From the sequence record ON528719: DNA of 39,381 nt, one strand, 5' to 3'. A program made the position numbers and the translations under genes. Below are positions 4,463-8,415 of this stretch, one piece after another. The DNA comes from Shigella phage ESh6. Under the pieces are notes generated by a model. The model saw only the letters and a program-made list of their open reading frames with translations. It made no database searches and had not been told where the DNA came from. Within the stretch, counting starts at the first letter, position 1. Every line of letters begins with the position of its first letter.

Positions 4463-4906
4463 ATGATAAACAAGAAGAAGTATGTTGTTGATAAGGAGAC
4501 TGGTTGCTGGAACTTTAAGGGATGCAAGACGAAGACTGGCTATGGTCGCATTCGTGTAAATGGAGTCCATTGGATGGCCCACAGGTATTCCCTGAGTTGT
4601 CATCTAGGCAGACCGATAGCTGACGGAATGGTTGTGATGCACCTGTGTGATAACCCTTCATGTGTTAACCCTGAGCACCTTAAGGAAGGGACTCAGAAGG
4701 AAAACATAGAGGACTGCATCTCAAAAGGTCGCGCAACTAAGGCCACAGGTAAACGTGATGCGTCTAAGAGAGACCCTAGCGAGGAACGTAAGGCTATAGT
4801 GATTCGTAGATACCATAAAGGCTGGACCGCAACGTCCATAGCGAGATACCATAAGCTCTCTGTGGCTTGGGTCAAGAGGACCATTGAGGAGTACCTAAGT
4901 GATTGA
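4463..4906 (+). CDS. HNH homing endonuclease (free-standing), inserted relative to T7
   Basis: 147-aa ORF with 'aaggagg' RBS. Cys/His-rich N-terminus and HNH core MHLCDNPSCVNPEHL; paralogous to the gene 7.7 ORF at 23823..24224. Confidence 0.8.
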   Translation: MINKKKYVVDKETGCWNFKGCKTKTGYGRIRVNGVHWMAHRYSLSCHLGRPIADGMVVMHLCDNPSCVNPEHLKEGTQKENIEDCISKGRATKATGKRDASKRDPSEERKAIVIRRYHKGWTATSIARYHKLSVAWVKRTIEEYLSD

Positions 4907-4957: not shown

Positions 4958-4980
4958 TAATTCGACTCACTATAGGGAGA
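4958..4980 (+). promoter_or_regulatory. T7 RNAP promoter phiOR (right-origin promoter)
   Basis: 'taattcgactcactatagggaga' matches the 23-bp T7 consensus except T at -13; lies between gene 19 and 19.5. Confidence 0.8.
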
Positions 4981-5066
4981 AGCCTACCTAAAGATTACTA
5001 TAAGACTTAAAGTGGCTATAAGGTAGGTTGTTATTATTAATACAACCAACATAAAGGAGGAGACTC

Positions 5067-5216
5067 ATGTTCCGCTTATTGTTGAACCTACTGCGGCATA
5101 GAGTCACCTATCGCTTTCTTGTGGTACTTTGTGCTGCCCTTGGGTACGCATCGCTTAGTGGAGACCTCGGTTCACTGGAGTCTACCGTTTGCTCTTTACT
5201 CACTTGTAGTGATTAA
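5067..5216 (+). CDS. 19.5: gp19.5 homolog (small hydrophobic protein)
   Basis: 49-codon ORF (below the ORF-track cutoff) after 'aaggagg'; MFRLLLNLLRHRVTYRFLVVLCAALGYASLSGDLGSLESTVCSLLTCSD matches T7 gp19.5 from memory. Confidence 0.7.
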   Translation: MFRLLLNLLRHRVTYRFLVVLCAALGYASLSGDLGSLESTVCSLLTCSD

Positions 5217-5289
5217 GGTCTTCCTGACCGACTGACGGCTCACCGAGGGATTCAGCGGTATGATTGCATCACACCACTTCATCCCTATA

Positions 5290-5790
5290 GAGTCAAGTCC
5301 TAAGGTATACCCATAAAGAGCCTCTAATGGTCTATCCTAAGGTCTATACCTAAAGATAGGCCATCCCATCGGTGATGCCTAAAGAGTTGCTTAGAGAGGG
5401 CCTAAGGAGTCCCTAGAGGGTCCTTTAAAATATACCATAAAAATCTGAGTGACTATCTCACAGTGTAAGCGCCCAAAGTTCCCCCCATAGGGGTCCCTAA
5501 AGTCACTCCTTTGGAGTGCCGGACCTTGAGGTGGCCTTGAGGTGGGGCCTGAGGTGGACCGAAGAGGGTCCTAATGTTACCGTTGGGAGTGTCTCCTTGT
5601 CCCTATCTGTTCAACCTCCTAAAGTCACCTCCTAAAGTTCACCATCAAGACAACACCAAAAGAATAACCTTAAAGACTCACCAAGTCAATCCCTATCTTA
5701 AAGTTTTCCCAAAGACCAGACCCAAAGACCAGACCCAAAGCTGCCCCGTTGTTACCTATAAAGAGATGACCAATAATCATTGTCTTTAAT
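5290..5790 (+). repeat. Short dispersed 'cctaaag / ccaaagaccaga' repeats typical of T7-type genome-end regions
   Basis: Multiple copies of ccTAAAG-like heptamers (e.g. 'cctcctaaagtcacctcctaaagttcacc') and tandem 'cccaaagaccagacccaaagaccagacccaaag'. Confidence 0.6.
5456..5615 (+). repeat. Direct terminal repeat, single collapsed copy; predicted physical genome left end at ~5456
   Basis: 'tctcacagtgta...gttccccccatagggg' matches the first bases of the T7 left end (recalled); the 240 bp between 19.5 and this point equals T7 spacing. Right boundary approximate. Confidence 0.5.
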
Positions 5791-5809
5791 TCGACTCACT
5801 ATAGAGAGA
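5787..5809 (+). promoter_or_regulatory. T7 RNAP promoter phiOL-like (left origin)
   Basis: 'taattcgactcactatagagaga': consensus -17 to +1 except T at -13, A at +2; located upstream of the host promoters as in T7. Confidence 0.7.
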
Positions 5810-5866
5810 GAGACTACTTAAAGAGGGCCAAAGAGAGAGATTAATCAAAATAATTTTAAAAGAGTG

Positions 5867-5895
5867 TTGACTTAAAGAGTCCTAGGGGATATTAT
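5867..5895 (+). promoter_or_regulatory. Host sigma70 early promoter A1
   Basis: -35 TTGACT (5867-5872), 17-bp spacer, -10 TATTAT (5890-5895); context 'aaaagagtgttgacttaaag' matches T7 A1. Confidence 0.7.
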
Positions 5896-5994
5896 TCATC
5901 TCGTCAACGGGACAACGGCCTAAAAGCCACTCCCTGAGATACCGGGGTCAACCGGATAAGTAGACAGCCTGATAAGTCATACGAAAAACAGGCA

Positions 5995-6024
5995 TTGACA
6001 ACACGAAGTAACATGCAGTAAGAT
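5995..6024 (+). promoter_or_regulatory. Host sigma70 early promoter A2
   Basis: -35 TTGACA (5995-6000), 18-bp spacer, -10 TAAGAT (6019-6024); near-identical to T7 A2. Confidence 0.75.
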
Positions 6025-6100
6025 ACACAGCGTCAACATGGTAGCACGGTGTCTTCTAGGTGACTTAAGCGCACCACGGCACACAAAGCGAAACAAACGG

Positions 6101-6129
6101 TTGACAACATGCAGTAAACACGGTACGAT
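6101..6129 (+). promoter_or_regulatory. Host sigma70 early promoter A3
   Basis: -35 TTGACA (6101-6106), 17-bp spacer, -10 TACGAT (6124-6129); near-identical to T7 A3. Confidence 0.75.
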
Positions 6130-6247
6130 GTACCGCAAGTAGTAAGGGTGTAGGGATAGGAACCGAGAAACCTGCCCGTGACCCGCCAAGGATAAGGCAC
6201 TAGCCATGAGTCGAATTCGGTCACTCATCGCATAAAAGAATAACAGG

Positions 6248-6276
6248 TTGACAGCCTCCTTTAAAAGCTGTAAGAT
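6248..6276 (+). promoter_or_regulatory. Additional sigma70-type promoter (fourth early promoter; not in canonical T7)
   Basis: -35 TTGACA (6248-6253), 17-bp spacer, -10 TAAGAT (6271-6276); sits on ~170 bp of extra sequence between A3 and the R0.3 hairpin. Confidence 0.5.
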
Positions 6277-6299
6277 GTACCACGAAATGACGGAACAGT

Positions 6300-6345
6300 G
6301 AGTCACCACACTGAAAGGTGATGCGGTCTAACGAAACCTGACCAA
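6300..6345 (+). other. RNase III site R0.3-like hairpin
   Basis: 'gagtcaccacactgaaaggtgatgcggtctaacgaaacctgacc' (tcacc/ggtga stem), identical to the T7 R0.3 region from memory. Confidence 0.55.
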
Positions 6346-6463
6346 AGACGCTCTTTAACAATCTGGTAAACGGCTCTTGAGTGTACACACGTAGCGGATA
6401 ACTCAAGGGTATCGCAAGATGCCCTTTATGATATCCACTAACAACACTATGAGGTAACACACA

Positions 6464-6826
6464 ATGGCTATGTCTAACATGACTTATAACAACGTTTTCG
6501 ATCACGCTTACGAAATGCTGAAAGAAAACATCCGTTATGATGACATCCGTGACGCTGATGATCTGCACGATGCAGTGCATATGGCAGCTGATAATGCCGT
6601 TCCGCACTATTACAGCGACATTTTCAGCGTAATGGCAAGCGAGGGCATTGACCTTGAGTTCGAAGACTCTGGTCTGATGCCGGACACCAAGGACGTAATC
6701 CGTATCCTGCAAGCACGTATCTATGAGCAATTAACGATCGACCTTTGGGAAGACGCTGAAGATTTGCTGAACGAGTATCTTGAGGAAGTCGAAGAGTCTG
6801 AAGAGTACGAAGAGGGTGAAGAGTAA
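6464..6826 (+). CDS. 0.3: Ocr, DNA-mimic anti-restriction protein (gp0.3)
   Basis: 120-aa ORF; [30 protein letters not shown]... near-identical to T7 Ocr; highly acidic C-terminus. Confidence 0.92.
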
Positions 6827-6981
6827 TGGCTAATAACACCACGCAATACGGTCTGACCGCTCAAACTGTACTGTTTTATAGTGACATGGTGCGCTGTGGC
6901 TTTGATTGGTCGCTCGCAATGGAACACCTTAAGGAACTGTACGAAAACAACAAGGCAATAGCCTTGGAGTCTGCTGAGTGA
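6826..6981 (+). CDS. 0.4: gp0.4 homolog (reported FtsZ inhibitor in T7)
   Basis: 51-aa ORF, ATG overlapping the ocr stop (TAATG); ...QYGLTAQTVLFYSDMVRCGF.WSLAM..LKELYENNKAIALESAE matches T7 gp0.4 from memory. Confidence 0.7.
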   Translation: MANNTTQYGLTAQTVLFYSDMVRCGFDWSLAMEHLKELYENNKAIALESAE

Positions 6982-7041
6982 TAGGCTCAAGGTCGCTCAA
7001 TATGAGTGGCCTTTATGATTATCACTTTACTTACGGGAGTA

Positions 7042-7176
7042 ATGTATATGCTTACTATCGGTCTACTCACCGCTCTGGGTCTAGCTGTAGGCGCATCCTT
7101 TGGGAAGTCTTTGGGTGTAGCTGTAGGCTCTTACTTGGTCGCTTGTATGATCACGGGAGCACTGCGCAAATGCTGA
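7042..7176 (+). CDS. 0.5: gp0.5 homolog, small hydrophobic peptide
   Basis: 44-codon ORF MYMLTIGLLTALGLAVGASFGK... preceded by 'gggag'; matches the T7 gp0.5 N-terminus from memory. Confidence 0.55.
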   Translation: MYMLTIGLLTALGLAVGASFGKSLGVAVGSYLVACMITGALRKC

Positions 7177-7307
7177 AATACTACGTTATGCCTATCCACA
7201 CCAAGAACGGCGCTACAGTTTGCACACCTGATGGCTTCGCAATGAAACAACGTATCGAACGCCTTAAGCGTGAACTGCGCATCAACCGCAAGCTCAACAA
7301 TATCTAA
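7170..7307 (+). CDS. 0.6: gp0.6 homolog
   Basis: ATG at 7170 within ORF-track 6978..7307; ...KYYVMPIHTKNGATVCTPDGFAMKQRIERLKRELRINRK matches T7 gp0.6A from memory. The upstream part of the tracked ORF is probably not translated. Confidence 0.55.
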   Translation: MLKYYVMPIHTKNGATVCTPDGFAMKQRIERLKRELRINRKLNNI

Positions 7308-7335
7308 TCACATTTAACACTGGAGAACGCACAAA

Positions 7336-8415
7336 GTGAACGCTATCGACATCATGAACGCTATCAACGCAATCAAAGCACTACCAATCTGTGAACTTGA
7401 TAAGCGTCAAAGTATGCTCATTGATTTGCTGGTCGAAATGGTCAACAGCGAAACGTGTGACGGTGAGCTAACCGAGTTGCATATGCCGCTCGAATGTCAA
7501 GACTGGTGGACTACCTTAAAGTGCCTGACCGCTGACGCTGGCTTCACGATGCTCGGTAATGGTCACTTCTCCGCTGCATATAGTCACCCACTGCTGCCTA
7601 ACAGAGTGATTAAGGTGGGCTTTAAGAAAGAGGATTCAGGCGCTGCGTATATCGCATTCTGCCGCATGTATCAGGGTCGCGCTGGTATCCCTAACGTCTA
7701 CGATGTTCAGCGTCATGCTGGCTGTTACACGGTGGTTCTCGATGCTCTGAATGACTGCGAACGCTATGATAACGAGGATCATGAGAAGTATGCTTCAATG
7801 GCAAGCGGCATTATTGATTATAACTCGGATGTATATAACAAGCGTACTGGATGGGATGGGGAGTTCGTCGAGACTTGCAAGTTAATCCGCAAGTTCTTTG
7901 AGGGCATAGCTTCGTTCGACATGCACAGCGGTAACATTATGTTCGACGATAATGATGTACCATACATCACCGACCCTGTGTCATTCTCACACAAGGAAGA
8001 CGGTGGCGTGTTCAGCATGGACCCTGAGGAACTCATCAAGGAAGTCGAGGAGGTCGCACGCCAGAGAGCAATCGACCGCGCTAAGGAGCGTAAAGCACGG
8101 CATGAGGGTCGCTTGCAAGCGCGTAGAGTCAAACGCATTAACCGTAAGGCACGTAAGGCACACCGCGCTAAGCGTGAAAGACTAACAGCACTATGGCGTA
8201 TGAACGAGCGTCAAAAACAGCGCAACCACGAAGTAGCTGTAGATGTACTAGGAAGAACCAACAACGCTATGCTCTGGGTCAATATGCTCTCTGGGGGCTT
8301 TAATGCGCTTGAGGAGCGAATCGCGCTGCGCTGGCGTAATGCTGACCGGATGGCTATCGCTAATGGTATGCCGCTCAACATTGATAAGAAACTGGACGCA
8401 ATGCTAATGGGATGA
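7336..8415 (+). CDS. 0.7: Serine/threonine protein kinase, host-transcription shutoff (gp0.7)
   Basis: 359-aa ORF, same length as T7 gp0.7 with high identity from memory; GTG start at 7336. Confidence 0.9.

Follow-up and report, generated by a model that had tools for sequence, protein, structure and literature searches.

A sharply bounded, non-coding leader cassette with a fourth host-type promoter in Shigella phage ESh6 and T7-like phages of four genera

The early leader of phage ESh6

The window analysed here, i.e., the whole stretch of 39,381 nucleotides of record ON528719 (Shigella phage ESh6), is a T7-like genome in circularly permuted form, in which position 5456 corresponds to nucleotide 1 of T7. 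Its leader (5780-6480) is 97.4% identical to those of the Teseptimavirus phages IME390 and PHB20. Four sites of the sigma70 type lie in it on the plus strand, within 410 bp, between a phage-RNAP promoter and gene 0.3 (ocr). The features of this region to which the text refers are the following:

5787-5809, plus strand: phiOL, phage-RNAP promoter upstream of the host promoter array, with TAATTCGACTCACTATAGAGAGA at 5787; aligns with T7 phiOL
5867-5895, plus strand: A1, host (sigma70) early promoter, TTGACT, 17 bp, TATTAT; aligns with T7 A1
5995-6024, plus strand: A2, host early promoter, TTGACA, 18 bp, TAAGAT; aligns with T7 A2
6101-6129, plus strand: A3, host early promoter, TTGACA, 17 bp, TACGAT; aligns with T7 A3
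6127-6134, plus strand: left copy of the direct repeat GATGTACC (-10 and discriminator of A3), putative left recombination joint
6137-6283, plus strand: cassette with no counterpart in T7 or T3, composed of X plus A4, one 147-bp promoter-to-promoter period
6146-6247, plus strand: X, about 100 nt of non-coding sequence
6206-6228, plus strand: palindrome ATGAGT CGAATTCGGTC ACTCAT (ATGAGT-N11-ACTCAT), including GAATTC at 6213-6218
6248-6276, plus strand: A4, fourth host-type promoter, TTGACA, 17 bp, TAAGAT
6274-6281, plus strand: right copy of GATGTACC, just before the predicted A4 start, putative right recombination joint
6350-6361, plus strand: boxA-like GCTCTTTAACAA in the common leader, outside the cassette
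6464-6826, plus strand: gene 0.3 (ocr), first gene past all four promoters, a 120-aa ORF whose matching records are named Ocr or ocr-like anti-restriction protein

The boxA-like element is a perfect one of its kind, located 66 nt downstream of A4, and does not vary among the window, T7, BA14 and phiSG-JL2. It is preceded by a TCACC...GGTGA hairpin at 6302-6323, and the pair resembles an antitermination leader of the rrn or lambda type. In several GenBank records (IME390, PHB20 and CICC 80001) ocr is mislabelled as “protein kinase” or “receptor binding protein kinase”, an error that is propagating among them. About 550 bp before the point where the match to the left end of T7 begins, there is a 147-aa ORF (4463-4906) with the look of an HNH-type homing endonuclease (CDNPSCVNPEHL motif).

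A fourth host-type promoter

In the alignment with T7, the first three sites correspond to A1, A2 and A3, so that an earlier note on this DNA was right in its assignment of A3. The same note had pointed to a further host promoter (TTGACA, 17 bp, TAAGAT) at 6248-6276, and this site is present as the fourth of the four on the plus strand. Taking the start of T7 A3 (750) as a reference, transcription from A3 is predicted to begin near 6137, while the predicted start of A4 is near 6284. A4 points rightward, 147 bp downstream of A3 and 188 bp upstream of the ATG of ocr, and it matches the sigma70 consensus in 10 of 12 positions with the optimal 17-bp spacer. A lone site of this quality is not rare, since eight sites with at least 10 of 12 matches exist on both strands of the 39 kb, as compared with 5.7 expected; it is their accumulation, four within 410 bp of a single strand and directly upstream of the early genes, that lies far beyond chance.

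Like A1, A2 and A3 of T7 and their T3 counterparts, A4 is placed between phiOL and gene 0.3 in the same orientation, and it shares with the T7 promoters the TTGACA -35 box and a spacer of 17-18 bp, its two hexamers being identical to those of A2. Unlike them, it is an additional fourth copy that stands behind about 100 nt of unique sequence. Its composition combines the -35 box and the spacing of A3 with the -10 box of A2, and the region from -10 to +20 is homologous to A3 of T7 and T3. Positions 6246-6300 match A3 as annotated in phiSG-JL2 and in T3-like phages (82-85%), and what follows A4 in the window is, in T7, the continuation of A3. Judged by its sequence, A4 is paralogous to both A2 and A3.

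Among the 32 distinct cassette variants described below, the -35 box TTGACA is invariant, as are the positions T1, A2 and T6 of the -10 box, whose internal base varies (TAAGAT, TAAGCT or TAATAT). The Berlinvirus and Kayfunavirus copies carry TAAGCT, which matches the consensus in three of six positions, so A4 might be weak in these phages. In the Teseptimavirus copies, by contrast, A4 is very probably active as an early promoter, given its perfect -35 box, optimal spacer, A2-type -10 box, A-rich upstream tract (AAAAGAATAACAGG) and A3-type discriminator. The promoter offers little novelty in itself, because it has already been annotated within a cassette common to about 30 phages: in the record of phage BA14 (EU734171), “host RNAP promoter” is annotated four times, and the last of these sites (834-870) is the homolog of A4. 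Literature searches turned up no paper dealing with the cassette or describing a fourth promoter of the A type.

Boundaries of the cassette with respect to T7 and T3

When the window is aligned with T7, a single clean gap appears in the A3-to-ocr leader, and the alignment with phiSG-JL2 shows a gap for the same cassette. From the A3 start to the ATG of ocr there are 327 nt in the window (6137 to 6464) versus 175 nt in T7 (750 to 925). The extra DNA that the earlier note had placed at 6130-6300, with a size of about 170 bp, is therefore real, although it measures about 150 bp and is best located at 6137-6283. The distance of some 20 bp between A3 and the R0.3 hairpin that the note had given for T7 proved wrong, since the T7/T3 leader is longer than 100 nt at this point (in T3, the -10 box of A3 ends at 711 and the R0.3 stem-loop spans 822-875). 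Even so, X is absent from T7, T3 and phiSG-JL2 alike, which refutes the possibility, raised in advance, that canonical T7 contains the same region.

Across the joint, T7 reads TACGATGTACCAC|ATGAAACGACAGTGAGTCACC, while the window reads TACGATGTACCGC-[X]-TAAGATGTACCAC-GAA-ATGACGGAACAGTGAGTCACC. In other words, the A3 promoter of T7 and of the T3 group equals the upstream half of A3 of the window plus the sequence that follows A4, fused at GATGTACCAC. As far as the sequences tell, one deletion between the repeats would be enough to turn the four-promoter arrangement into that of T7, and an acquisition would be enough for the opposite change. The promoter array shows another small indel: the A2-to-A3 spacing is 106 bp in the window (6025-6100) and 125 bp in T7 (620-713), because an 18-nt segment, AATCGCTAGGTAACACTA, is missing from the window.

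Distribution among T7-like phages

A BLAST search with 6130-6300 as the query against 50,697 phage records matched 64 of them, 44 with a coverage of at least 80%; after merging RefSeq and GenBank duplicates, these represent about 30 distinct phages. Carriers are 89-99% identical over the query, and the remaining 20 records match only 6246-6300, that is, the A3 of T3-like phages. A metagenome scan added five T7-like contigs (one further match was discarded as chance). The carriers belong to Teseptimavirus (IME390, CICC 80001, pO111 and others), Berlinvirus (BA14, 285P, P694, P483 and others), Kayfunavirus (SH3, ST31, yong1 and others) and Przondovirus (K35PH164C3), so the cassette is not peculiar to ESh6, but a sharply bounded unit common, with 91-100% identity, to about 30 phages of four genera. 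It must also be dispensable, since T7, T3 and about 90% of the related leaders do without it.

The sharpness of the boundaries is best appreciated in the identity to the window of consecutive segments of the Berlinvirus, Kayfunavirus and Przondovirus copies:

6091-6136, A3-type promoter upstream: 52-65%
6146-6247, X: 91-100%
6248-6283, A4: 86-97%
6284-6340, post-A4 leader: 46-61% in Berlinvirus and Kayfunavirus and 98% in Przondovirus K35PH164C3, with 30% in the Teseptimavirus pO111

Identity between genera thus jumps just downstream of the left copy of the repeat, and the right joint is 6283/6284 in every lineage, with at least five unrelated leaders beginning right after it, one of them of the T7 type (in PHB19, A4 is followed by a T7-type leader). 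In BA14, the cassette occupies the same place as in the window, after the third promoter, and X is 99% and A4 86% identical, in contrast with a -10 box TAAGCT, unrelated flanks and a SAM hydrolase gene that replaces ocr downstream; the annotation of this phage covers the promoter and is silent on X. A different outcome is seen in the Teseptimavirus PDP351P2, whose leader (787-945) contains two strong host promoters only, the second being a hybrid of the upstream part of A2 and the core of A4, which implies that the A2 body, A3 and X were deleted by recombination between promoter copies.

The arrangements of PHB19 and PDP351P2 argue that the promoter array recombines between its copies and, together with the joints at GATGTACC repeats, the sharp boundaries and the varied downstream leaders, they indicate that recombination between paralogous promoter copies inserts, deletes or swaps the cassette. 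The earlier note had offered an added promoter and leader recombination as alternatives; on the sequence evidence, the promoter architecture and the repeat joints speak for both, and the two appear compatible. Variation of this kind has precedents in the mosaic early regions of T7-like phages, where modules are swapped and the number of host promoters differs between close relatives, as in the T7-like Yersinia fPS phages, with three to six predicted host promoters (PMC5923468). What sets the window apart from this general mosaicism is that the swapped unit is a precisely bounded non-coding piece jointed in promoter repeats.

There is another explanation, which we regard as possible though rather doubtful: the cassette could be a neutral hitchhiker, a by-product of unequal or inter-phage recombination in which A4 is a redundant copy and X a functionless spacer, their identity reflecting recent spread. 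No homolog of the cassette below 89% identity was found in the 50,697 phage records, so it must have spread recently by comparison with the separation of the genera, as neutrality would have it, and the absence of the cassette from most T7-group phages points the same way. Moreover, other early pieces have been swapped as well. In the Berlinvirus P694, a SAM hydrolase gene precedes an ocr region with 94% identity to 6444-7029 of the window, in contrast with an RNAP gene of 64-70% identity, from which it follows that early anti-restriction genes are exchanged between genera. Neutrality is harder to reconcile, however, with boundaries that are identical in four genera beside at least five different downstream leaders, and with the pattern of substitutions within the cassette, which is described below.

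Segment X as a candidate structured RNA

In every carrier, about 10 nt, free of indels, separate the predicted start of the preceding promoter from X, and since the flanks differ between carriers, any function of X must be self-contained. A scan of 5400-7100 with the covariance models of Rfam 15 (E up to 10) gave no match in 6137-6283; its two weak matches, at chance level, fall at 5607-5684 and at 6283-6343, the latter starting at the last base of the cassette. X was likewise unmatched by blastn in 5,426 E. coli genomes and 72,556 plasmids, no exact 20-mer from it occurs in the GTDB species genomes, and the genome of the window holds no second copy. So far as these searches show, X is apparently an undescribed segment, conserved and seemingly structured.

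Several simple origins and roles were considered and discarded. Local alignments of X to the A1-A2, A2-A3, post-A4 and pre-A1 segments stay within shuffle expectation, so it does not look like a diverged duplicate of a neighbouring leader. A coding cassette was rejected as well, its ORFs being spurious minus-strand ones running through the promoters plus one plus-strand ORF of nine codons. No terminator-like site was found on the plus strand of 5000-8000, and the palindrome does not qualify as an intrinsic terminator, as there is no GC-rich hairpin followed by a T-run (CGCATAAAAG comes after the palindrome).

Five helices are predicted on the plus strand both by the minimum-energy fold of the single sequence and by RNAalifold:

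6146-6148/6182-6184, plus strand: predicted helix H1
6153-6160/6171-6177, plus strand: predicted helix H2
6185-6187/6196-6198, plus strand: predicted helix H3
6203-6214/6221-6231, plus strand: predicted helix H4, with the palindrome at its core
6243-6278, plus strand: predicted helix H5, a hairpin over the -35-to-10 interval of A4, which would be present in read-through RNA from A1-A3 or phiOL

The folding energy of 6136-6290 is ordinary in comparison with shuffled sequences (z = -0.62) and by itself lends the structure no support, which is one more point in favour of a neutral hitchhiker. The palindrome that the earlier note had described around an EcoRI-like site is present, with GAATTC at 6213, although a 6-bp inverted repeat by itself is near chance; with such a stem and such an energy, it is the substitution pattern, and not thermodynamics, that supports it.

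This pattern was examined in the 32 distinct cassette variants over 33 predicted pairs. Whereas 19 of 72 unpaired positions vary, only 9 of 66 paired ones do, and 7 of these keep pairing; pair-breaking changes amount to two, both singletons (Fisher P ~1e-4). Pair 6146:6184 (H1) is G-C or U-A; 6206:6228 (H4) is A-U, G-U or G-C (A-T, G-T and G-C in 18, 8 and 6 variants, respectively, at the DNA level); and 6255:6267 (H5, in the A4 spacer) is C-G, switched in the Berlinvirus copies to T-A, i.e., U-A in RNA. Apart from the wobble at 6244:6277 (C-G or U-G), there are three compensated pairs, in three helices. When the observed patterns were re-dealt onto random positions with the clade structure kept, three or more compensated pairs arose with P = 0.001 (20,000 trials), and controls with slid partners gave zero or one. 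A hold-out set of nine phages fetched later has changes in loops, bulges and linkers only, and none of them breaks a stem. The covariation rests on few events, because the variants differ very little and each compensation may go back to one event in one clade, so that the evidence is no more than suggestive; substitutions that shun the predicted stems, or compensate within them, fit poorly with a functionless spacer. The invariant G-U pairs in H2 and H5 make the structure specific to the plus strand, which is the sense strand of transcripts from A1-A3 and phiOL. The folding model and the substitution pattern together suggest that X is a plus-strand structured leader RNA.

The palindrome invites another interpretation, that of a double-stranded DNA site, either bound by a dimeric protein of the host or the phage (e.g., a regulator of A4) or able to extrude as a cruciform. 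The ATGAGT/ACTCAT inverted repeat, with the inner palindrome CGAATTCG, lies just upstream of A4 and is invariant in nearly all copies, as would be expected of such a site. Yet the two palindromes are not concentric (their centres are near 6217 and 6215.5), the G-T combination at 6206:6228 in eight variants and the invariant G-U pairs of H2 and H5 pair only as plus-strand RNA, and compensation is also found in helices distant from the palindrome, all of which makes a DNA site unlikely. More improbable still is that X encodes a micro-peptide, MSRIRSLIA, from the ATG at 6207. This ATG is replaced in other genera by GTG, both being usable starts, and there is a weak AAGG 9 nt upstream. Nevertheless, the frame has nine codons only, its Shine-Dalgarno sequence is unconvincing, X is full of stops in all frames and the change T6228C, in spite of being non-synonymous, exactly compensates A6206G in the hairpin.

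The GAATTC at 6213-6218 is the only one in the 39,381-base window, where about 10 would be expected, and it is kept in 31 of the 32 variants (CHX131 has GAATTT). Palindromes of 6 bp are avoided throughout the window, 19 of the 64 being absent and 8 occurring once, versus about 8-11 occurrences expected for each. That the sole EcoRI site has been retained in a genome purged of most 6-bp palindromes is also at odds with a neutral hitchhiker. On the minus strand, the left arm of the palindrome (6207-6217) equals 11 nt, AATTCGACTCA, of the RNAP promoters of the phage, from about -16 to -6 (compare 5788-5798 and 4959-4969); the initiation half is missing and, with a BLAST E of ~1, the similarity may be due to chance.

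A proposed recombining cassette with a probable leader RNA

Taken together, we find it fairly probable that the region is a recombining non-coding cassette of about 147 bp that brings in an added promoter, A4, and, in X, a probably folded leader RNA. From A4, the E. coli RNA polymerase would start rightward at about 6284 and contribute further transcripts of ocr and the remaining early genes. X would be transcribed from A1-A3 and would fold in the infected cell into several hairpins, including the palindrome, which would be under selection as plus-strand RNA. The whole would be gained, lost or exchanged among T7-group phages by way of the near-identical -10 boxes and discriminators (GATGTACCAC) of neighbouring promoters.

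Judging from the model, X most likely functions as RNA. Cleavage by RNase III at R0.3 detaches the leader of T7 from the mRNAs. Since the leader would be cut off in this way, X should be unable to stabilise the messages and should instead act co-transcriptionally on the polymerase or in trans; accordingly, the favoured guess is a self-contained leader element that would work on the transcribing polymerase in cis or else, following its release by RNase III at R0.3, in trans. There are known leader RNAs that modify the elongating RNA polymerase in cis, namely the put RNAs of HK022 and the boxB-boxA leaders of the rrn operons and of lambda. X would resemble them by position, with predicted stem-loops straight after an early promoter (about +10 of A3), an untranslated leader that is read through for kilobases and a boxA at 6350. 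The comparison is a hypothetical one, by analogy only, and X matched no Rfam family. An elongation or antitermination context is plausible as a hypothesis, because the boxA-like GCTCTTTAACAA is kept in all leaders compared. In its most specific form, X (6146-6247, perhaps together with H5 through 6278) would be an undescribed, self-contained structured RNA, the first made on infection, moving between genera with its own downstream promoter and acting either in a put-like processivity system with boxA or, after RNase III has freed it, as a decoy directed at a defence or another host factor; we put this forward as a tentative possibility.

Early transcription by the host polymerase also pulls the genome of T7 into the cell. 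About 850 bp of T7 enters before transcription takes over, and the predicted start of A4 corresponds to about nucleotide 829 in genome coordinates. If the T7 figure holds for ESh6, the start would lie just inside the segment that enters first; a role of A4 in this initial entry would not be general, because the site of BA14 is slightly beyond 850.

The fourth promoter may raise the early expression of anti-restriction functions and speed up the transcription-driven entry of the genome. A4 itself is an ordinary promoter, and what it illustrates is how recombination between promoter copies alters the number of early host promoters that T7-group phages carry. X, for its part, is near-invariant across four genera, although their flanking leaders (and, in the one genus where it was measured, the RNAP gene) retain only about 55-70% identity. 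If X is indeed a functional leader RNA, the first transcript of a very well-studied group of phages would contain a new element that is easy to test.
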